NCBI GenBank assembly: GCA_963746775.1
Contig: CAVVCK010000002.1
Coordinates: 303,592-367,591, forward strand
Length of the DNA: 64,000 nt
Source: an uncultured bacterium
Lineage (GTDB): Bacteria > Patescibacteriota > JABMPQ01 > CAVVCK01
Direction of reading: 5' to 3'
The notes beneath the pieces were generated by a model that searched no databases, was not told where the DNA came from, and worked only from the letters and a program-made list of their open reading frames with translations. Below, piece after piece: positions 7,874-36,553 of this stretch. Position numbers and translations under genes: made by a program. Numbering within the stretch: position 1 is the stretch's first letter; each line of letters begins with the position of its first letter.

Positions 7874-9400
7874 TTAAGCAGCCTGCCTTACTTCATCGAC
7901 TAATTCTCCCACAAAATCCTTCATAATTTCACTCTCTTCTCTACCATTCTGCTCTTGTAATGCCTTTCTAAGAAAAGCGTTCTTTCTTTCTTTCTTTAAT
8001 CTTAAAACTTTACTCATTTCGCTCGGTCCTATCTTAAATTTTTTTGCTGTTTCCGTAAAATTTTTTTGGTCTCCCAAGGCTTTATTTAATTTTTTATATT
8101 TCTTTTGCGCCTCACTCACAATTTCCATTATCTCAGTTAAATTGTCTATTTTTCTCTTTAAAATATCCGCCTCTTTACCTTCAGCAGGCTTAGCCGCTAA
8201 TAATTTTTCTTTTTCTTTTAAATTATATTCTATTCCTTCTCGCTGCTCCTTGGTCAACTCTAACTTTAAACGTAAACCCCTCATTCTACCCGCTTTGTAT
8301 TTATCCCTTAATAAAGGTAATTCTTCAACAACCGTTGTATCAACTACCTTACCCTCTGAATCAATCACTTCGATCTTTGATCCTCTATCTTTATCAGTTT
8401 TTATAATTCCTTCATAAGCCCTAGAATTTCCAATTGGAGAAACTATTTCCCCATCTTCTAAGGCTTTTTTATAATAATCTATGTCTTTTTGCAAAATCTC
8501 ATTCTTTTGCGCCTCCCTAGGATCCAATTTTATTTCCGCTATATTTCTTTCTACATAAAGAGTTTGGCTTAATTTACTTAGTTCTCTGAATGTGTTTACC
8601 CCCTCATGACACAAGAGAGCTAATGACTTTCTTATATCTTCTTTCCCCTTGTCTGTACTTTCATGCCCACCGCCCTCTCTTATGTTCTCCAGCTTAAGAA
8701 GCTGAGAATCAAGATTTTGTATTTCTTCTTCTAATCTTTTTATCTGTTTAATATCCTCGTTATCCAATTCTTCTTGCGCATTTAGTTTATCTAAAGCATC
8801 CTGATCTGATTCTTGTTGCAGTTTTACATTCTCAATTTGATTAGCGGGTAATTCTCCCTTGAGACTAGTTCCGCCTGCACGCTCTATTAAGGTATCCAGT
8901 ATTTTTCTATAAATTTCCCGACTTGCTTCTGCTTCACTAAAACCACTACCTTCTAATTCTTTTTCATAACTAAATAAACGTTCAAATGAGTCGGCTTGCC
9001 CTTCAGGGACTAAATCATCAGATTTAATTTCTTCTGATTTAATTTCTTTTGGTTTATTTTCTCCTTCAGTCTTAACTCTTTCCACCTTAGTACTCCCTAA
9101 CGTCTCACTGTTATCAGTTAATTCAATTTCTTCCCCTGCCTTTTTTAAAGCTTTATCTGCTTCTTTTTCTACGCCTTCTAATTCTTTTTCCATAGACTCC
9201 CCTTCTGCTTTGGTAAAACCAAACCTTTTAGAAACCCAACCAAATACTTCCTTTCCTCTCTGAACCAAAAAATTTTTTGCTCCCGCTAATTTATCTTTAA
9301 CACTCTTGGGATCCTCAAATTCATCCTCAATATACTCTTCTTCAACGCCTTTTACTTCTGTGGTTTCTCTCTCTGACAAATTTTTTTTAAAATCTGACAT
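7874..9400 (-). CDS. hypothetical acidic coiled-coil protein
   Basis: 508 aa, very E/K-rich with long predicted helices and no TM segment. No recognisable catalytic motif. Confidence 0.5.
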   Translation of the reverse strand: MSDFKKNLSERETTEVKGVEEEYIEDEFEDPKSVKDKLAGAKNFLVQRGKEVFGWVSKRFGFTKAEGESMEKELEGVEKEADKALKKAGEEIELTDNSETLGSTKVERVKTEGENKPKEIKSEEIKSDDLVPEGQADSFERLFSYEKELEGSGFSEAEASREIYRKILDTLIERAGGTSLKGELPANQIENVKLQQESDQDALDKLNAQEELDNEDIKQIKRLEEEIQNLDSQLLKLENIREGGGHESTDKGKEDIRKSLALLCHEGVNTFRELSKLSQTLYVERNIAEIKLDPREAQKNEILQKDIDYYKKALEDGEIVSPIGNSRAYEGIIKTDKDRGSKIEVIDSEGKVVDTTVVEELPLLRDKYKAGRMRGLRLKLELTKEQREGIEYNLKEKEKLLAAKPAEGKEADILKRKIDNLTEIMEIVSEAQKKYKKLNKALGDQKNFTETAKKFKIGPSEMSKVLRLKKERKNAFLRKALQEQNGREESEIMKDFVGELVDEVRQAA

Positions 9401-9418
9401 ATTTTTATAATTAATTTA

Positions 9419-9592
9419 TTACTTTAACTTTTCTCTAATTTTTTCTATTTCCTCATTCTCTTTTTTCTTAATATACTTTTCAATAATTTTATCCTGCTTC
9501 TTTTTTAAGCTATCTAAAATACCAATATATTTTTCATATATCTTTTTATTTCTTTCCGCTCTTTTTATTTTTTTAATATCTTTATCGGTCAT
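9419..9592 (-). CDS. small lysine-rich hypothetical protein (57 aa)
   Basis: ATG at 9590-9592 (reverse complement) to a TAA at 9419-9421: MTDKDIKKIKRAERNKKIYEKYIGILDSLKKKQDKIIEKYIKKKENEEIEKIREKLK. No clear RBS. Confidence 0.2.
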   Translation of the reverse strand: MTDKDIKKIKRAERNKKIYEKYIGILDSLKKKQDKIIEKYIKKKENEEIEKIREKLK

Positions 9593-9714
9593 CTTAAGAT
9601 TTTTTAATATAATTATTATAAACTATTTGTATCATTACGTAAAATCTGCTATTATTTAAATTAGATTTCACATATCTTTATGTTTTTATTTTTTTATAAT
9701 TTTAATTTTTTAAA

Positions 9715-10860
9715 ATGTATATAGGCAAAATAGAAACTGGTCGATCATATAAAAAAATTATTGCCCTCTTTATAATTTTAAGCATTGGCTTAATTGGTTT
9801 TGTAATTTACAATTCTTTTTCCAGTGCCCGTATTACTATCACGCCTAAGCATGAAATAGAAGAAGTTACTTTTGAAATGCCGGTGGGCAACACTGAGGTA
9901 GAAGGACAGCCTAGTCAATTATCATTGCCAGGCAAAGTGCTAACCCGTGAATCAGAATTAAAAGAAACATACAATGGCTTGGAAAATAAATTGGTTGATG
10001 CTCATGCCCACGGCAAAGTAACTATATATAATAATCTAGACACTGCTCAAGCTCTCGTGCCTAAAACACAATTAAGATCAGCTAAGACTGGTTTAATTTT
10101 TCGTCTTAATAGTTATGCTGGAGTACCTGCTCATGGACAAGTAGATGTATCTGTTACATCTGACGATAAAGGAGAGAAAACAAATATCGAAGCAGATAAA
10201 TTTATTATAGTTAAGGTACGCCCAGACTGGCAAGATAATCTTTACGCCGAAAGCACAAGTAAAATGGAAGGTGGCGCTAAACAAGGTAAGGTAGCTACAG
10301 ATGAAGAAATAGAAAAAGCCAAAAGCCAAGTGGCAGAGAGTGCCCATAAAATAAATTTAGAAAGTTTTAAAAATGAGCTTAGTGGTGATGAAAAAATTTT
10401 AGAGCAAGCTACTAAAATTGAAATACTAAATTACAAACCTTTTGTGGAACTTGATCAAGAGGTAGAAAACTTTGATATGTATGTACAAATAAAAAGTGTA
10501 GCCGTGATCTTTGATGAAAAGAAATTATTTGACCAGGCTCAGACAAGATTAGAAAATAATGTTACTGATAACAAAGAATATTTAGGACACATACCAGAAA
10601 GCTTCCATTATGAAGTTACCCACTATGACCAAAATAAAAACTATGCTATACTAAAAACAACTTTACAGGGCAATGTTGTTTATAAGTTAACCACAGAAAA
10701 TTTTGATAAAGAAGAATTGGTAGGCAGAACACATGATGAGACCGTGCAATATTTTCAAAAAGATGGTAATATAGATAGTATCGATGTAAAGCTCTTCCCC
10801 TTCTGGGTACGATCAATACCCAATATGCAAGATAAAATTAAAATAATTATTAATAAATAA
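9715..10860 (+). CDS. hypothetical membrane-anchored extracytoplasmic protein
   Basis: 381 aa with an N-terminal TM helix (IIALFIILSIGLIGFVIY). The rest is soluble and beta-rich with no known motif. Confidence 0.5.
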   Translation: MYIGKIETGRSYKKIIALFIILSIGLIGFVIYNSFSSARITITPKHEIEEVTFEMPVGNTEVEGQPSQLSLPGKVLTRESELKETYNGLENKLVDAHAHGKVTIYNNLDTAQALVPKTQLRSAKTGLIFRLNSYAGVPAHGQVDVSVTSDDKGEKTNIEADKFIIVKVRPDWQDNLYAESTSKMEGGAKQGKVATDEEIEKAKSQVAESAHKINLESFKNELSGDEKILEQATKIEILNYKPFVELDQEVENFDMYVQIKSVAVIFDEKKLFDQAQTRLENNVTDNKEYLGHIPESFHYEVTHYDQNKNYAILKTTLQGNVVYKLTTENFDKEELVGRTHDETVQYFQKDGNIDSIDVKLFPFWVRSIPNMQDKIKIIINK

Positions 10861-30548: not shown

Positions 30549-31343
30549 TCATCCTATCAATCCAAGATACCACCCAAAAATAACCTCTCCAAAAAACATA
30601 CTTATAAACGTTCCAACTACTAAAAAGGTTCCCATAGGAACTTTTTCTTTTAACTTTTTCTTTTTAGAAACTAATAAAATAACCCCAATTATAGCTCCAA
30701 TCACATAGGAAAAAAATAGCATGACTAAGGCCTCTGGCCAGGATAAAATTATGCCTAAAAATATTCCAAATTTTACATCTCCTGCCCCTATCCATTTGCC
30801 TTTTGATAATAAATATAAAATTAAAAAAAATCCAAATACTAAAAATATTGAAAATACGTGAGTTATTATAAATTCTAAAGACTTAGTGTAAAATGATTCA
30901 AAAATTATATCTAAAATACCAATTATTATGCCTGAAAATAAAATTCTATCGAGTATTAAATAATATTTTAAATCATAAATAAAAATCGTAATCAGAATAA
31001 CTGCAAAAATATATCTTACTGATAAATTTATAATTGACACAAGTGAACTATCAATTAAATTATTCTCATTAATAAATTTAATAAATAATAATACAAAAAT
31101 TATTCCTGTAACAAATTCAACTAAAGGATATTGCCAACTAATTTTACTTTTACAATATCTGCATTTTCTCCCCAGAAAGATAAAACTAAAAATAGGTATT
31201 AAATCAAAGAAACCTAATTTATGATGACATTTAGTACACTCAGACCTATCCCACATGCTCATTTCTTCATAAAGTCGATAAACTAGAGCATTTATAAAGC
31301 TCCCCATACACAAACCTATTGTAAATATAAATAAAAACGTCAT
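30549..31343 (-). CDS. pilD: prepilin peptidase (A24 family)
   Basis: N-terminal Zn-binding C-x-x-C...C-x-x-C module (CTKCHHKLGFFDLIPIFSFIFLGRKCRYC). Polytopic core with the GAGDVKF active-site Asp region. Confidence 0.8.
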   Translation of the reverse strand: MTFLFIFTIGLCMGSFINALVYRLYEEMSMWDRSECTKCHHKLGFFDLIPIFSFIFLGRKCRYCKSKISWQYPLVEFVTGIIFVLLFIKFINENNLIDSSLVSIINLSVRYIFAVILITIFIYDLKYYLILDRILFSGIIIGILDIIFESFYTKSLEFIITHVFSIFLVFGFFLILYLLSKGKWIGAGDVKFGIFLGIILSWPEALVMLFFSYVIGAIIGVILLVSKKKKLKEKVPMGTFLVVGTFISMFFGEVIFGWYLGLIG

Positions 31344-31537
31344 ATTAATTCAAAATTTTGATTTTCAAATTTATTTAATTTTATCATAAATAAACTACGT
31401 ATGAAAGATATCACTGTAAGATGACAAATAACCATTTATAAACCAAATACAAATTTCTGTAGTTTTATTATAATTATAATCCATGTATTAAATTCATACG
31501 TGGTAAAATAGATTCTAAACATCCAAGCTTTCATACG

Positions 31538-31577
31538 TAGTAAACAAAAAACGGTAACTAATTAGATTACCGTTTTT
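31538..31577 (-). terminator. rho-independent terminator of the pilin gene
   Basis: Minus strand hairpin AACGGTAATCTAATTAGTTACCGTT followed by TTTTTTGTTT. Confidence 0.55.
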
Positions 31578-31601
31578 ATGTTTTATTATCAAAATTACAG
31601 G

Positions 31602-32021
31602 CTAAGTACAATCTGCCGTAGCACTATCACCACAACCATCTTGATCGCAAGTGAAATAATCACCACCTTCTAAATCTCCAGAAACACAGAAAGTCTGTTG
31701 ATCAGCACTATTATCAGTCCAAGCATAAGCAGCCGCTTGAGGATCAGCAGGAATTGAATCTAAATAAGTAGAAGTAGAACTAGCAATAGATGACCCTGTA
31801 GTGTAAGCACTAGTATCGGGATAAGCAGCATCATCATCATAAGACATTTCCATAGCTAAACCCATTTGTCTAACATCACTTTGTCTGGCTGCATCTCTAG
31901 CTTTTTGTCTAGCACTTCCCAAAGCTACTAATACTAAGGCAGCTAAGATACCAATAATAGCAATTACTACTAAAAGCTCAACTAAAGTAAAACCTTTTTG
32001 TTTCTTAATCATTTGTTTCAC
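31602..32021 (-). CDS. type IV pilin (prepilin N-terminal methylation motif)
   Basis: MKQMIKKQKGFTLVELLVVIAIIGILAALVLVAL is the classic class III signal (G-F-T-L-V-E). Cys-rich C-terminal region. Strong RBS GGGAGGTG. Confidence 0.8.
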   Translation of the reverse strand: MKQMIKKQKGFTLVELLVVIAIIGILAALVLVALGSARQKARDAARQSDVRQMGLAMEMSYDDDAAYPDTSAYTTGSSIASSTSTYLDSIPADPQAAAYAWTDNSADQQTFCVSGDLEGGDYFTCDQDGCGDSATADCT

Positions 32022-32240
32022 CTCCCTTCATATGTTTTTTATTTTAATCTTAAAATTTAGGAATAATCCTAAATTTTATCTGTTTTTCTTTTGTATTATT
32101 TATCAACAGTTAAGGATATTATAGCAGATTATATAAAAAATAACTAATAAATATCCACTTTGTCAGTCTTCGTTCTTTTGCCATCACATTTTTTCAATAT
32201 TTTTCTTTGCGAAATACTCCACCAATGAATATCTTCTTGC

Positions 32241-32921
32241 CTATTCTTTATCAGCGAATATCACTAACCGTTTAGGATAATTTTCGGAAATTTTATTAAA
32301 ATTTCCCGCGCAAGTAATGAGATTAAGGTGTGCTTTTCCGTCGCCTGAATTAAATACACTTGAGGTATTATCATTCTCATTATACATCCGAAATTCTCGC
32401 ACCACAAAAGTAGTAGTCACTCCTTTTTCATCTTCGACATATAAACTATCGCCCTGTCTCAACTTATTTAAATTATCGAACACTGACCCTTCTCCATTCT
32501 TCCAACGACCATAATGTCCAGCGATAACTGCGCTACCAATAGCTCCGGGACGCGGACCAAGCTTAAACCATGCTACATTGTTCGGCTTTTTCGGTACATC
32601 CATTGCTCCATTAGATACAACACCCACATACTCGACAGTAGCATCAACATTTATCCCTGGAATTTTGAGACGCACCGGCAACCCAGAATTTACTTCTTCC
32701 TGTTTTGGGAGAGCAACGCTATTCTCAATAAGCGATGCTGAACTGTTCTGGGTTAACCTTTTGGGAATAAAATATAAAAGAAGCACTAAAAAAAGTACAA
32801 ATCCTATAAGGACAACCACTAATAGTATTCGTTTAGATAAAATTTTCGATTTCATAAATTTTTCAATAGATTCATAACACAAAAGCCCCGACTTGGCGGG
32901 GCCTTTAATATCTCTAGGCAA
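32241..32921 (-). CDS. sortase (class E/F-like transpeptidase)
   Basis: N-terminal TM. Catalytic His in VIAGHYG and Cys in the HLNLITCAG (TLxTC-like) motif. Beta-barrel length is about right. Confidence 0.7.
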   Translation of the reverse strand: MPRDIKGPAKSGLLCYESIEKFMKSKILSKRILLVVVLIGFVLFLVLLLYFIPKRLTQNSSASLIENSVALPKQEEVNSGLPVRLKIPGINVDATVEYVGVVSNGAMDVPKKPNNVAWFKLGPRPGAIGSAVIAGHYGRWKNGEGSVFDNLNKLRQGDSLYVEDEKGVTTTFVVREFRMYNENDNTSSVFNSGDGKAHLNLITCAGNFNKISENYPKRLVIFADKE

Positions 32922-32964
32922 AGCACATTTCCAAGTACATTTATTAATCGTACAAGCGTCTAGG

Positions 32965-34245
32965 CTAAGTCCTACACTTTCTTAAAACTAAGACTATTGA
33001 GGTCGAAACAAACATAATTATACTAACTGGTATAACAATACCAAGCGGATTATTTCTCCCTTCAGGAGAAAGTCCCGTCTCGGGAAAATCAGGAGTAAGT
33101 GTACTGCTAGTATCAGTAGTAGTGCTAGTAGTATCAGTAGTAGTACCAGTAGTGTCGGTAGAGTCGGTAGTATCAGTAGTAGTGCTAGTAGTATCAGTAG
33201 TATCAGTAGTATCAGTAGTGTCAGTAGTGTCGGTAGTAGTATCAGATATATCAGTATTAGTAATTGTGCAAGTTTTATCATCACCAGTTGCAAGCGTTAC
33301 ATTACCACTCGAATCACAATCCCCGCTAATACTTTGTGTATAAGAAGCATTAGCATCTTCGCTTACTACATAGGTACCCGCATTCAACGAATAAGAAGTT
33401 CCGGGCGAAGCAACTCCATCTGCCGGACTTCCTGAAACATCAACACCAGAATGCTTTACATGCATATTGAAGTCAGAAGGAACTGCTGTACCACCATGAC
33501 TATTAACAACACGTTTAATAACATGAAGAGTAGCAGGAATTGGTGAAGCTGCACATGTCGCTACAGTAATATTATTAGTGTCTAAAGTGACTGCAGCATT
33601 TCGTGCTAACACACTACCTTCCACATTGGCACCAGTATTGAGTGTGATAGACGTCAAAGCAAGAATATTCCCCCTGAAAGTGGAATTCGTTCCGAGTGTC
33701 GCAGAACTACCAACTTGCCAAAAGACATGACAAGCCTGAGCACCATTTGCGAGAACCACGTTACTTCCACTCGCTGTGATAAGTGTAGAGGCAGTTTTAA
33801 AAATAAAGACTGCATCAGGATCGCCCTGAGCATCAAGCGTTAGGGTTCCTGTTATCCCAAAATCACCCGCAGCGGAGTTATAGGCACCGGCGGTTTTAGT
33901 TGTTCCACCGAGCTCCGTAGCTACAACAGTAGATGTTTGTCCCGCAGCATCATTATAAGCTGTGGTCAAATCATTTTTAGCCTGCACTGCTGTCGCGTCA
34001 GCTACATGCTGTGTTCCAACAAGTGTGCCTGGCGGGAAACCAGTAACCGCAGAGCCTGGGCTTAAACCCAAATCTCCAGTAACAATACTGGAACCAGTGT
34101 TGGTTACTGTAGAACCAGCCAGAACCGCAAAACTATCGGCTGTACCAAGATTTACCGTAGTCGCAGCTTTGATTATCCAAGCCAGACCAAACGTTATCGT
34201 AACAGCCAATACAGCTACTATTAAAGTTTTATTAAACCTTTTCAT
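32965..34245 (-). CDS. ice-binding-like (DUF3494) surface protein with T/D-repeat stalk and LPXTG-like (FPETG) sorting signal
   Basis: Signal peptide. LGTADSFAVLAGSTVTNTGSSIVTGDLGLSPG is the DUF3494 N-terminal signature. A (TDTTDTT)n stalk is encoded by tandem repeats at about 33102-33250. C-terminal FPETG, then a hydrophobic segment and RKCRT. Confidence 0.65.
   Translation of the reverse strand: MKRFNKTLIVAVLAVTITFGLAWIIKAATTVNLGTADSFAVLAGSTVTNTGSSIVTGDLGLSPGSAVTGFPPGTLVGTQHVADATAVQAKNDLTTAYNDAAGQTSTVVATELGGTTKTAGAYNSAAGDFGITGTLTLDAQGDPDAVFIFKTASTLITASGSNVVLANGAQACHVFWQVGSSATLGTNSTFRGNILALTSITLNTGANVEGSVLARNAAVTLDTNNITVATCAASPIPATLHVIKRVVNSHGGTAVPSDFNMHVKHSGVDVSGSPADGVASPGTSYSLNAGTYVVSEDANASYTQSISGDCDSSGNVTLATGDDKTCTITNTDISDTTTDTTDTTDTTDTTDTTSTTTDTTDSTDTTGTTTDTTSTTTDTSSTLTPDFPETGLSPEGRNNPLGIVIPVSIIMFVSTSIVLVLRKCRT
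33102..33250. repeat. in-frame 6/9-bp tandem repeats encoding a Thr/Asp-rich stalk
   Basis: agtagtatc / agtagtgtc units repeated more than 12 times within the IBP-like CDS. Confidence 0.6.
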
Positions 34246-34922
34246 ATATTTTATTTAATTACTTATAGTCAATTGGTTATGATCGACCAAATTAGAGAAG
34301 ATAAATATCATCTCTAATCCCAGTTAATTTTATTATAACACTTTTACTTCTACTATAGATGTGGATAACTTTATTGCCAGTATAGGAAAAAAATCTACGT
34401 CCACTGTTATTTTCTTGCGGTAGTTCTAAATTATTCTTATCGCAGTGCGTATTAGAAAAGATTCGAACCAATTTCGCTTAAAATTTAGAGTGAGCAGACC
34501 TTGGACCATTGATACCATTTTAAAACTAATTAATTAACAGGATATATCGGAAGCTAAAGATTTTCTCATAGCCAAAAGGGAAATAAACAATTTATCTAAT
34601 AATATTTAATTGACAGCAAATTATTACAATCGCTTCTTAGATATTCTAATAATTGATAGCGAGTACATAAAAAAGATTATAATTAAAAATACCGCTTATC
34701 TACGGTATTGATTATCTAAAACATGATTTTCCTCTAGGCATATTATCTCACTCAAAAAAAGATTTAAATCATTCAAAAACGCTGAAATATTTTTAAACAC
34801 TTATCTAAATACCCCTTAAATTTAACGCTTAAAAAAACAGGCCAATATACCTGAAATTCTTTCTAAATACCAACCCAAAAACAAAACAGTAATAACAATC
34901 TTTTTGTAGTATTTTCTCTAAT

Positions 34923-35012
34923 TGGCGGAAGGGGTGGGATTCGAACCCACGGTACCCGTGAGGGTACAGCAGTTTTCAAGACTGCCCTATTCGGCCACTC
35001 TAGCACCCTTCC
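34923..35012 (-). tRNA. tRNA-Ser (anticodon TGA), CCA encoded
   Basis: Reverse complement GGAAGGGTGCTAGAGTGGCCGAATAGGGCAGTCTTGAAAACTGC...GTGGGTTCGAATCCCACCCCTTCCGCCA folds as a cloverleaf with a long variable arm and anticodon loop CTTGAAA. Confidence 0.8.
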
Positions 35013-35383
35013 AAAATTTAGTTAAAATATTTTTTCATAAAAGCTCGTCCAGAACCAGATTTTAAATATTTATCAAAATTATATGCTATGTATTTATTCT
35101 GAAATAAAAAATAACAATTGAGTTTTAATGGTCTCTTATTTATCGTAGCAGGAACAAAACCTTCATTGTGTCTTTCTACTCTATTTTTTTAGATTGGCTG
35201 TACAACCCGTATATGGTTTACCATCCCTACAATCTAATATATAAACATACCACATAAAAGTTTTCTATTTGATAAAACGGGCTTGTCTGTCGTAGTCCGC
35301 AGTTTATTAATATAATTTGATTATAAACTAATAGCTAGACTATTCTAACAATTCGCCTTCGCTTAAGCTACGGCGGACGAAGA

Positions 35384-35470
35384 CGGAGAGAGAGGGATTC
35401 GAACCCTCGGGCCCCTTGCGGAGCCAACAACTTAGCAGGTTGCTGCTTTCAGCCACTCAGCCATCTCTCC
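35384..35470 (-). tRNA. tRNA-Ser (anticodon GCT)
   Basis: Reverse complement GGAGAGATGGCTGAGTGGCTGAAAGCAGCAACCTGCTAAGTTGT...GAGGGTTCGAATCCCTCTCTCTCCG has a long variable arm and anticodon loop CTGCTAA. No CCA encoded. Confidence 0.8.
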
Positions 35471-35837
35471 ATAGAATTATAAAAACAATATAACACAAGA
35501 ACAAAAAAACAAGTACTAGATTTCCTTCTACACTTGTCCTTATTCTATTCAAAAATTAACAATAAAGCAATAATATTTGTTTTAAAATTAGTAAACCCTG
35601 TTAAAATATAGCATATTAAGATAATTTAAATTATTTTTTATTTATTTGTATAATTAGTATAAATTCGCATATTAGCATTATATAAATTAAATTAGGAAAA
35701 CATAAACACTACAGAGGGAAAGAATAGAAATAAATGGGAAAATGGTTCCTCATTTTAAACTTATTAACAATTAAGTTTCCTAAAAAGTCAAAAATCTGTT
35801 ATTATGAATTTGAAATTATTTTATATAACCTAAAAAT

Positions 35838-36481: not shown

Positions 36482-36553
36482 GCCCTCGTCGTTCAATGGA
36501 TAGGACGCAAGATTGCGGTTCTTGCAATACAGGTTCGACTCCTGTCGAGGGCA
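36482..36553 (+). tRNA. tRNA-Arg (anticodon read as GCG)
   Basis: GCCCTCGTCGTTCAATGGATAGGACGCAAGATTGCGGTTCTTGCAATACAGGTTCGACTCCTGTCGAGGGCA. Acceptor GCCCTCG/CGAGGGC, anticodon stem CAAGA/TCTTG, loop TTGCGGT. Confidence 0.7.

Follow-up and report, generated by a model that had tools for sequence, protein, structure and literature searches.

A DUF3494 surface protein and the adjacent class-F-like sortase as a putative cell-wall display pair in Patescibacteria

The present study examines a gene pair in a 64,000-nucleotide stretch of a patescibacterial contig (the window) and asks whether a protein with an ice-binding-like head is the particular cargo of the sortase encoded beside it, and how the phenylalanine that opens its sorting motif should be understood. 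An earlier note, made from the sequence alone, had read the protein as an adhesin of the DUF3494 family sorted to the cell wall and dedicated to that sortase. The features on which the argument rests, with residue numbers (aa) of the encoded proteins, are these:

32965 to 34245, minus strand: gene for the DUF3494 surface protein, the putative sortase substrate (open reading frame, 426 aa; PF11999 E 1e-62; mean pLDDT 85.8)
34165 to 34245, minus strand: signal peptide, aa 1-27, MKRFNKTLIVAVLAVTITFGLAWIIKA (basic N-terminus, and hydrophobic helix aa 7-23 in the model)
33562 to 34164, minus strand: DUF3494 or ice-binding-like beta-solenoid head, aa 28-228 (pLDDT 97-98, AlphaFold2)
33247 to 33537, minus strand: SpaA_2 or CnaB-like Ig-fold domain, aa 237-333 (pLDDT ~97, all-beta)
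33088 to 33246, minus strand: disordered Thr/Asp-rich stalk, aa 334-386 (pLDDT 41-53)
33073 to 33087, minus strand: sorting pentapeptide FPETG, aa 387-391 (FPETG also in the relative L089)
32968 to 33072, minus strand: linker LSPEGRNNP, hydrophobic helix and basic tail RKCRT, aa 392-426 (model helix aa 401-425)
32881 to 32906, minus strand: terminator-like hairpin between the substrate and sortase genes, AAAGGCCCCG-CCAAGT-CGGGGCTTTT (A-tract, GC stem, T-tract)
32241 to 32855, minus strand: class-F-like sortase, 204 aa, next gene downstream of the substrate gene (PF04203 E 5e-24)

The substrate and the sortase

The 426-residue product consists of a signal peptide, a DUF3494 head, an Ig-like domain, a Thr/Asp stalk and a C-terminal region of FPETG, helix and RKCRT, and the elements read earlier from the letters alone were all found, including the N-terminal signature (LGTADSFAVLAGSTVTNTG...GDLGLSPG, aa 33-64), the stalk, the pentapeptide, and a hydrophobic segment (PLGIVIPVSIIMFVSTSIVLVL) followed by RKCRT at the extreme C-terminus. 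The signal peptide would be cleaved after A27, a site judged by eye, and the mature start ATTVNLGTA is common to substrate homologues. Membership of the head in DUF3494 is borne out by the Ice_binding profile PF11999, matched over its full length (1-208) by residues 41-227 with 211.9 bits versus a cut-off of 28.7, while the IBP_CFB equivalog of NCBIfam gave 99.6 bits, far under its cut-off of 400. The beta-solenoid that had been expected was recovered by structure prediction: the head is modeled as a right-handed, triangular DUF3494 solenoid with a long helix (aa 84-101) packed against it, superimposes in Foldseek on the ice-binding protein EfcIBP (6eio) with TM 0.90, rmsd 0.8 A and 49% identity (phmmer of the substrate against 6eio_A, E 6e-56), and is matched by 31 IBP structures at E <= 1e-10. 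The fold is shared with secreted EfcIBP and with SfIBP_1 of Shewanella frigidimarina (6bg8), at TM 0.79-0.90. The layout is comparable to that of SfIBP_1 as well, in which beta-sandwich extenders keep the head at the cell surface; unlike in SfIBP_1, the extender here comprises one CnaB-like domain and a Thr/Asp spacer, anchoring would proceed through a sortase signal in a Gram-positive-type envelope, and the habitat is not known to be an icy one.

For the Ig-like domain, PF19403 (SpaA_2) is recorded in substrate homologues; on the window's own protein the Pfam SpaA_2 profile did not reach E 0.01, and Foldseek matches to the pilins Spy0128 and Spy0125 were weak (E ~0.01-0.05). Residues K244, E296 and N330, a candidate isopeptide triad, are kept in practically every alignment row with this domain and sit on model strands 238-247, 290-296 and 323-332. 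A Lys-Asn isopeptide bond would probably lock the domain, and the candidate triad resembles the Lys/Glu/Asn triad that Gram-positive pilins and MSCRAMMs (Spy0128, Spy0125) have in the Ig-like domains of their stalks. The stalk that follows is encoded by a degenerate 9-nt tandem repeat at 33108-33261 (TRF: period 9, 13.6 copies), and in L089, a relative with ~90% identity, it is 31 aa longer. Against the same relative dN/dS is 0.20 for the substrate gene and 0.20 for the sortase gene, and both are under purifying selection. GC content rises at the cassette to 0.40-0.49 versus ~0.30, for which horizontal transfer was considered as a cause and set aside: the excess in the substrate gene lies at codon position 2 (0.555) and follows from amino-acid composition, with GC3 at 0.26 (z = 1.7), and the GC3 of the sortase gene, at 0.306 the highest in the window (z = 3.1), is a weak hint only.

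The claim that the window's only sortase is the next gene downstream agrees with the searches, in which PF04203 gave 84.8 bits versus a gathering score of 26.6 and a relaxed hmmsearch gave 370 bits to this protein and 9 bits to the next ORF. The sortase is identical in sequence to P0121, encoded on a contig of 547,535 bp, and the exact substrate protein does not occur in the protein collection searched. The start of the sortase gene is most likely the ATG at 32855 rather than the TTG at 32921 with which the longest ORF opens, because homologues begin MxSKILSK and the TTG extension would cross the conserved hairpin. Judged from its sequence the enzyme is class-F-like with an intact His-Cys-Arg triad: H114, C182 (in LITC) and R196 do not vary among 39 homologues, and the class F model NF033748 gave 116.9 bits, the best of the NCBIfam classes by >80 bits (others <=36 bits) and still below the curated cut-off of 166, as are five homologues named "class F sortase" by NCBI (112-128 bits). 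The class C model gave 27.6 bits versus a cut-off of 160. Among solved sortases, the nearest in both sequence and fold are class C enzymes (8t28 at E 2e-8, 2xwg and others), with classes A, D and E scoring nearly as well in Foldseek. In the model a helix at 5-29, read as a membrane anchor, is followed by a disordered linker and a barrel at 57-205 (205-residue query, numbered one higher than from the Met), and neither model nor sequence has a C-terminal anchor. A DP[WFY] lid motif was not found in the sortase, nor a YPK(N) pilin motif in the substrate. With class F (NF033748; P. acnes SrtF, PMC8225981) the enzyme has in common its N-terminal anchor, its His-Cys-Arg triad and substrates of the LPxTG type, but SrtF is described as a housekeeping enzyme whereas the sortase of the window is paired with one cargo and scores below the class cut-off.

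Linkage across genomes and the sorting signal

Relatives of the sortase occur in at least 577 places among one-genome-per-species assemblies, and linkage was assessed in a sample of 80 species-level Patescibacteria loci fetched via the sortase. A sorting-signal protein lay directly upstream on the same strand in 66 of them, and 58 of these proteins were DUF3494 by an HMM made in this analysis. Among the other eight, several end at a contig edge or carry a frameshift split, and the four that were scanned showed the same stalk domains or nothing recognizable. The 14 loci with no intact signal protein directly upstream comprised eight cut by a contig end, one with a broken sortase, three with an upstream DUF3494 protein whose signal is damaged, one with the substrate downstream and one with the substrate 2.3 kb upstream. 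In all, the cassette was found in at least 70 related species. Approached from the substrate side, a sortase follows immediately downstream in P0031 (FPATG), P0096 (FPKTG) and P0002 (LPKTA), the last a Syntrophomonadaceae genome and thus a relative in the Firmicutes with the same pairing; one close homologue, P0036 (LPTTG), has no adjoining sortase. At locus L088, whose genome translates UGA as glycine, the two are a single ORF running from DUF3494 through FPKTG to the sortase domain. In eleven loci, sorting-signal DUF3494 genes stand in tandem, two or three of them ahead of one sortase (L011, L028, L032, L038, L048, L063, L070 and L076 among them), and at the two-sortase loci, L038 and L054, additional sorting-signal proteins lie alongside. 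Neighbors other than the cassette genes vary among loci; downstream of the window's sortase lie a type IV pilin and a prepilin peptidase, and a functional link with them was considered and dropped, since no pilin occurred at up to 6 kb from the sortase in any of the 80 loci.

The upstream sorting-signal proteins in 66 of 80 loci, the pairing in Firmicutes and the fusion argue together that the pairing is not due to chance, and on comparative sequence grounds the DUF3494 protein and the sortase are a conserved pair. The earlier proposal of a sortase-substrate pair gains further from the linker described below and from the flanks of the 80 loci, where 679,858 bp held no further xPxTG signal. In the stricter sense, with this protein as the sole substrate in the genome, the pair may be dedicated as well, the stretch read being 64 kb of a contig of at least 547 kb.

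Within the window, a signal of pentapeptide, transmembrane segment and basic tail is present in one of 97 ORFs of at least 60 aa, namely the substrate, and every element of a sortase signal is present there, in keeping with the earlier reading of the C-terminus. Compared with LPXTG, FPETG retains P, T and G and replaces L with F, and cleavage would be expected between T390 and G391. The 85 signals of the cassette family follow the consensus [L/F]P[N..]TG-phi-x-P-[DE]-E-x-x-I-P-W-N, with a linker behind the pentapeptide of phi-x-P-[DE]-E-[KN]-[SN]-I-P-W-N, to which LSPEGRNNP conforms. The F had been called unusual. That holds for sorting signals at large; in the present family it does not, position 1 being L in 73 signals and F in 12. 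Partners with F are spread over the sortase clade, and the nearest neighbors of F-partnered sortases are L-partnered; by its scatter over the aligned sequences, F at this position appears to have arisen repeatedly. An FPxTG-specific sortase subclade was sought by aligning 74 sortases with their partner motifs and rejected, the best column out of thousands of tests reaching a Fisher p of 0.009 before correction, and no sortase residue in these 74 covaries with F versus L. F is a recurrent minority variant, and this absence and the scatter in the clade suggest that it is probably tolerated and marks no separate specificity. Group B Streptococcus naturally uses FPKTG as a pilin signal (PMC6314413), and Gram-positive pilins and MSCRAMM-type adhesins resemble the present protein both in a sortase signal that can begin with F and in their plan of head, stalk and anchor.

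A proposed mechanism and its alternatives

The locus is very probably a two-gene cell-wall display cassette in which the sortase anchors the DUF3494 protein. The signal peptide would export the substrate, and the C-terminal helix and RKCRT would hold it in the membrane, where the membrane-anchored sortase may read FPETG plus the conserved linker behind it. Cys182, with His114 and Arg196, would cleave Thr390-Gly391, and the sortase would then hand the substrate to an amine of a peptidoglycan precursor as the presumed acceptor, giving a DUF3494 head spaced from the wall by the Ig-like domain and a spacer of ~50 Thr/Asp-rich residues. An adhesin function, as the earlier note proposed, is plausible, the head most likely attaching to another cell or surface and, less likely, binding ice.

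Expression of the two genes may be set by the intergenic hairpin, which is conserved across homologous loci. A stem of at least 8 bp is present in 40 of 52 homologous spacers versus 18% of shuffles, the hairpin is identical in L089, which also retains FPETG, and compensatory changes occur in 11 of 12 stem pairs among sequences anchored on their own best hairpin and chosen for having one. The spacer as a whole folds no better than shuffles (z = -1.5), Rfam on 31400-35600 returned two tRNA-Ser genes only and no family matching the hairpin, and promoter-like sites in the region are at chance level. Most likely the hairpin would end or stabilize most transcripts after the substrate gene, and its effect may be to provide much substrate and little enzyme.

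Dedicated sortase-target pairs are known, such as SrtB with IsdC (NPQTN) and the "marine" or class GN sortase (TIGR03784) with a single neighboring target. As in those pairs, the sortase adjoins the gene of its cargo, and the signal on the cargo is a variant peculiar to that pair. Here, however, the pentapeptide remains LPxTG-like and specificity lies in the 11-residue linker that follows, the cargo is a DUF3494 beta-solenoid, and the host belongs to the Patescibacteria; the enzyme also departs from the TIGR03784 system in being class-F-like, with only 29 bits to that model. An alternative explanation, which we consider quite unlikely, could be that the sortase does general housekeeping, anchoring several wall proteins encoded elsewhere in the genome, and that the DUF3494 protein is just the substrate next to it. 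This would be consistent with the description of the class F sortase studied so far, from P. acnes, as housekeeping on LPXTG (PMC8225981), with a window covering ~12% of its source contig, and with a clade that takes either L or F as the first motif residue, which suggests a loose pocket; but it would not account for a pairing that persists while other neighbors change, a linker conserved within the cassette family, the fusion protein, flanks with no unlinked signal, or the finding of extra sorting-signal proteins at loci that have two sortases.

The Ig-like domain, a SpaA_2/CnaB pilin-type fold, includes a segment TYVVSEDxxxxY that we take to be E-box-like, and with the eleven tandem loci this could suggest that the sortase polymerizes DUF3494 proteins into a covalent pilus-like fiber, in the manner of class C enzymes acting on pilins, instead of or before anchoring single copies to the wall. 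Residues F, I, V or Y at motif position 1 are typical of pilins (PMC6314413), and the closest solved sortases are pilin enzymes of class C (8t28, 2xwg). Such a fiber is nonetheless very improbable, with 27 bits to class C versus 117 to class F, Foldseek scores of class A, D and E enzymes close behind those of class C, and one substrate gene in the window. A C-terminal anchor, common in class C sortases, is missing from this one, as is the lid, and the substrate has no YPK; in these respects the system is unlike Gram-positive pilins, with their pilin motif and lid-bearing class C sortase, and its head is a beta-solenoid, not the thioester, vWA or lectin domain of pilins and MSCRAMMs. Genuine ice binding by the head, with the cassette displaying an antifreeze or ice-adhesion protein for survival in freezing habitats, is also unlikely, because many different sampling projects have yielded Patescibacteria assemblies with the cassette, a Syntrophomonadaceae bacterium has it too, and several of the project labels are presumably those of aquifers, a geyser and a temperate lake. 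Moreover, DUF3494 is also treated as a surface-adhesion domain (PMC12337378) and the substrate has a weak match to PF20597, against which stand the close resemblance of the head to 6eio, deposited as a real ice-binding protein, and surface-tethered DUF3494 "ice adhesins" with beta-sandwich extenders, e.g. SfIBP_1 (6bg8; cited in PMC11645318). A broader reading of the wall-display cassette, possible although doubtful, is that with its extended signal and hairpin it constitutes the main, ancient wall-display module of Patescibacteria, with the head a host-cell adhesin of episymbionts and no antifreeze.

Significance for Patescibacteria

A large part of bacterial diversity belongs to the Patescibacteria (CPR), for which a life attached to other cells is assumed, and to our knowledge the surface molecules behind this attachment are mostly unknown. 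A survey placed a sortase family in more than half of CPR genomes and named no cargo (PMC6744442). Full-text searches of a literature collection with few subscription journals returned no paper joining DUF3494 and sortase, nothing on ice-binding with Candidate Phyla Radiation, and nothing relevant on ice-binding with Patescibacteria or Saccharibacteria. The mechanism is a known one with a new cargo, and the distribution is wide and apparently unreported; the unit seems not to have been described as such. For the window itself this amounts to a sound annotation with an unsurprising mechanism. Specificity for FPxTG had to be engineered for protein ligation (PMC8248031), and a natural sortase clade serving both LPxTG and FPxTG would be of some interest in that field as a possible enzyme source. 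If the reading is true, the cassette would be a clear case of an "ice-binding" fold used outside icy habitats, and if the DUF3494 protein is a regular cargo of this sortase, it would be a concrete candidate for host attachment, testable in the few cultivable Saccharibacteria.

The substrate and sortase of the window

The ORF at 32965–34245 on the minus strand encodes a protein of 426 aa, and all of the strings quoted from it in the earlier note were found in the translation. That note had annotated it as a DUF3494 ice-binding-like protein carrying a sorting signal, correctly: it matched Pfam Ice_binding (PF11999) at E 1e-62, and the proposed beta-solenoid was recovered by AlphaFold2 (mean pLDDT 85.8 for the whole model). 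The nearest solved structure was the ice-binding protein EfcIBP (6eio), with a sequence match at E 6e-56 and, by fold, a TM of 0.90, rmsd of 0.8 A and 49% identity.

Organization of the substrate protein
aa 1–27: signal peptide (helix at 7–23 in the model)
aa 28–228: DUF3494 beta-solenoid (pLDDT 97–98)
aa 237–333: Ig-like all-beta domain (pLDDT about 97)
aa 334–386: disordered Thr/Asp-rich stalk (pLDDT 41–53)
aa 387–391: sorting pentapeptide FPETG
aa 392–400: short linker after FPETG
aa 401–425: helix, then the RKCRT tail

Its C-terminal sorting signal was the only one among 97 ORFs of at least 60 aa in the window, which has a G+C of ~0.31 and genes mostly on the minus strand. The gene directly downstream (32241–32855, minus strand) encodes a sortase (PF04203, E 5e-24) and, as the earlier note had claimed, a search of the window ORFs found no other. 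Its start is likely ATG 32855, which would give 204 aa, because homologues begin MxSKILSK and because the longer ORF from TTG 32921 crosses a conserved hairpin. His114, Cys182 (in LITC) and Arg196 were invariant across 39 homologues, and the model had a helix at the N terminus, then a disordered linker and the sortase barrel. Among NCBIfam class models the best was class F at 116.9 bits, below the curated cut-off of 166 and with the others at 36 or less; five homologues named 'class F sortase' by NCBI also scored below this cut-off. Sequence and fold searches found no solved structure close to the sortase, and both matched class C sortases best, classes A, D and E scoring nearly as well.

Pairing across genomes

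The alignment of the 39 sortase homologues was used to fetch loci from one-genome-per-species assemblies. Relatives were encoded at at least 577 places, of which the best 80 were analyzed by scanning all ORFs with purpose-built HMMs and a sorting-signal pattern. By record title, 76 of these best 80 were Patescibacteria lineages (Campbell-, Morani-, Nomura-, Berkel-, Yanofsky-, Falkow-, Uhr-, Wolfe-, Peregrini-, Kaiser-, Magasanik-, Komeili- and Buchananbacteria, Saccharimonadales and Paceibacterota) or unclassified bacteria, and the other four were labelled 'uncultured Gammaproteobacteria'. In 66 of the best 80, the gene immediately preceding the sortase in the same orientation encoded a protein with [L/F]PxTG, a TM segment and a basic tail, at a gap of 0–760 nt, mostly less than 130, and the DUF3494 HMM recognized 58 of these 66. 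Contig ends or frameshifts interrupted several of the remaining eight; four were scanned with Pfam, three having SpaA_2 and DUF7507 stalk domains and one no match. The 14 loci without the standard upstream signal comprised three in which the upstream DUF3494 gene had a truncated or unusual tail, one with the substrate downstream of the sortase, one with it 2.3 kb upstream, eight in which the sortase lay ~0.7 kb or less from a contig end, and one broken sortase. From the substrate side, a sortase was immediately downstream of the homologues P0031 (FPATG) and P0096 (FPKTG) and of a Syntrophomonadaceae protein (LPKTA); none was immediately downstream at the locus of a further homologue, P0036.

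At one locus (L088:5001–6986, JGI 3300056825, 1.29-Mb contig) a single ORF joined DUF3494, DUF7507, FPKTG and, directly after FPKTG with no membrane segment between, the sortase catalytic domain; 20 in-frame TGA codons in the region fell at expected glycines under genetic code 25. Either a self-processing fusion or an error of assembly could account for this ORF. Neighbours other than the substrate were not conserved in the best 80 loci. The earlier reading, of features consistent with a dedicated sortase-substrate pair, is supported by the 66 loci, the single ORF and the otherwise unconserved surroundings. A relative ~90% identical (L089) had the same cassette, with FPETG kept and the hairpin identical, and dN/dS between it and the window was 0.20 for each gene; therefore both are under purifying selection.

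Features around the cassette
30549–31343, minus: prepilin peptidase, downstream of the sortase
31602–32021, minus: type IV pilin with N_methyl motif, downstream of the sortase
34923–35012 and 35382–35471, minus: two tRNA-Ser genes (anticodons tga, gct), immediately upstream of the cassette
36482–36553, plus: tRNA-Arg (gcg), beyond the tRNA-Ser genes

A promoter-like site and a terminator-like hairpin (31547–31577) belong to the pilin itself. The pilin and peptidase neighbourhood was kept in L089 and absent from all 80 others (the best 80 of at least 577), with neither gene adjoining the sortase in any, and is specific to the lineage of the window. The tRNA genes, the ~680 nt of AT-rich non-coding DNA separating the substrate gene from the first of them, and the GC3 of the sortase (0.306, z = 3.1, the highest in the window) hint weakly at an insertion of the cassette here.

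There were second DUF3494 paralogues in L031, L033, L043, L044, L050, L054, L061, L066, L067, L078 and L083, positioned immediately upstream of the sortase-linked one in 10 (e.g. L033:2697–4043) and immediately downstream of the sortase in L067. These ended with a PG_binding_1 peptidoglycan-binding domain rather than a sorting signal, and the same head would therefore be wall-attached via two routes. A sortase in L038 (4832–5983) was joined to a PG_binding_1 domain. Two sortase genes, together with additional sorting-signal proteins, were present at several loci; second sortases also occurred in L047, L050 and L054, the last of these at 8939–10039, adjoining an LPDTG protein (8025–8939). A DUF5670 small membrane protein of 47–50 aa was encoded a short way upstream of DUF3494 in unrelated genomes, the Syntrophomonadaceae one among them (L001:5451–5597, L002:903–1049, L086:3730–3873 and the locus of P0036). 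Read by eye, a small ORF of this kind may also be present in the long DUF3494-sortase spacers of L020, L055 and L065.

Sorting motif, stalk and spacer

Residues of the sorting pentapeptide in 85 signals from cassettes
Position 1: L in 73, F in 12
Position 2: P always
Position 3: N mostly (52), E in 2 only
Position 4: T in 78, A in 7
Position 5: G always

The linker between the pentapeptide and the hydrophobic segment was conserved as phi-[AGP]-P-[DE]-E-[KN]-[SN]-I-P-W-N, which the window linker LSPEGRNNPLG matches apart from having L where W is expected. Sortases partnered with F were spread among those partnered with L, and no column of the sortase alignment covaried with F or L at position 1. 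The simplest reading of these sequences is that the pocket of this sortase clade would take either large hydrophobic residue, and that, given such a pocket, L-to-F switches would have occurred many times and been near neutral. Of the earlier description, FPETG stood; its F, unusual in general, recurs as a minority variant among cassette signals, and pilins of group B Streptococcus naturally have FPKTG (PMC6314413). Engineering of sortase A has also aimed at F in this position (PMC8248031).

SpaA_2 was present in homologues of the substrate; in the window substrate no SpaA_2 match reached E 0.01 in the Pfam search. In the model, K244 lies on the first strand of the Ig-like domain, E296 on a middle one and N330 on the last, and in the alignment they were kept wherever this domain occurs. 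This layout is that of CnaB-type isopeptide domains, and TYVVSEDxxxxY around E296 is similar to the pilin E-box; we hypothesize that an isopeptide bond might form in the stalk domain. Structural matches to streptococcal pilins were weak only. The stalk DNA is a degenerate tandem repeat with a 9-nt unit, and the stalk had 53 residues in the window (33088–33246) versus about 84 in L089:292–1665, where it is (TD)n and 31 aa longer. Between these two, the stalk spacer evolves via repeat expansion and contraction while head, signal and hairpin stay fixed.

The 109-nt spacer between the genes contains AAAGGCCCCG-CCAAGT-CGGGGCTTTT (32906–32881, minus strand). Of 52 homologous spacers, 40 contained a stem of 8 bp or more without interruption (usually 11–17 bp), versus 18% of shuffles. 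Stem sequences vary, with compensatory changes at 11 of 12 pairs in a 27-spacer alignment, a measure inflated by anchoring on each sequence's own best hairpin. Rfam had no match to the hairpin; its form, A-tract, GC-stem and T-tract, suggests an intrinsic terminator or 3'-end stabilizer, which would set the substrate-to-enzyme ratio high. Between hairpin and sortase ATG (32856–32880, minus strand) is GGTTATGAAC-TTTTTG-AAAA(TTT), conserved in distant Patescibacteria lineages, which may serve the sortase gene as promoter or in ribosome binding. Gene callers often translate across the GGTTATGAAC stretch, producing spurious N-terminal extensions (MPDKGLSGICGYELFxKF...).

Probable wall display and its alternatives

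Substrate and sortase probably form a sortase-dependent wall-display cassette, the mechanism of which would be the classical sortase pathway. A housekeeping enzyme that also serves substrates encoded in other parts of the genome is an unlikely alternative; flanking DNA outside the cassettes, 679,858 bp in all, contained no further xPxTG-type signal. Pilus-like polymerization of the substrate is highly unlikely. It would be in keeping with the fold of the stalk, the resemblance of the sortase to class C and the occurrence of two or three substrate genes in tandem at some loci, but the sortase has no lid and the substrate no pilin motif.

Dedicated sortase-target pairs are already known. To our knowledge, there is no precedent in the searchable literature for DUF3494 as a cargo family of a sortase, for a class-F-like Patescibacteria sortase clade with an extended signal, or for a conserved hairpin in the substrate-sortase spacer. 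A survey of CPR genomes recorded a sortase family in over half and reported no more on sortases (PMC6744442). That the head genuinely binds ice, which is compatible with its anchoring to the wall, is unlikely. The wide occurrence of the cassette, in Patescibacteria assemblies from many sampling projects and in a Syntrophomonadaceae bacterium, argues for a general surface-binding role of the head.
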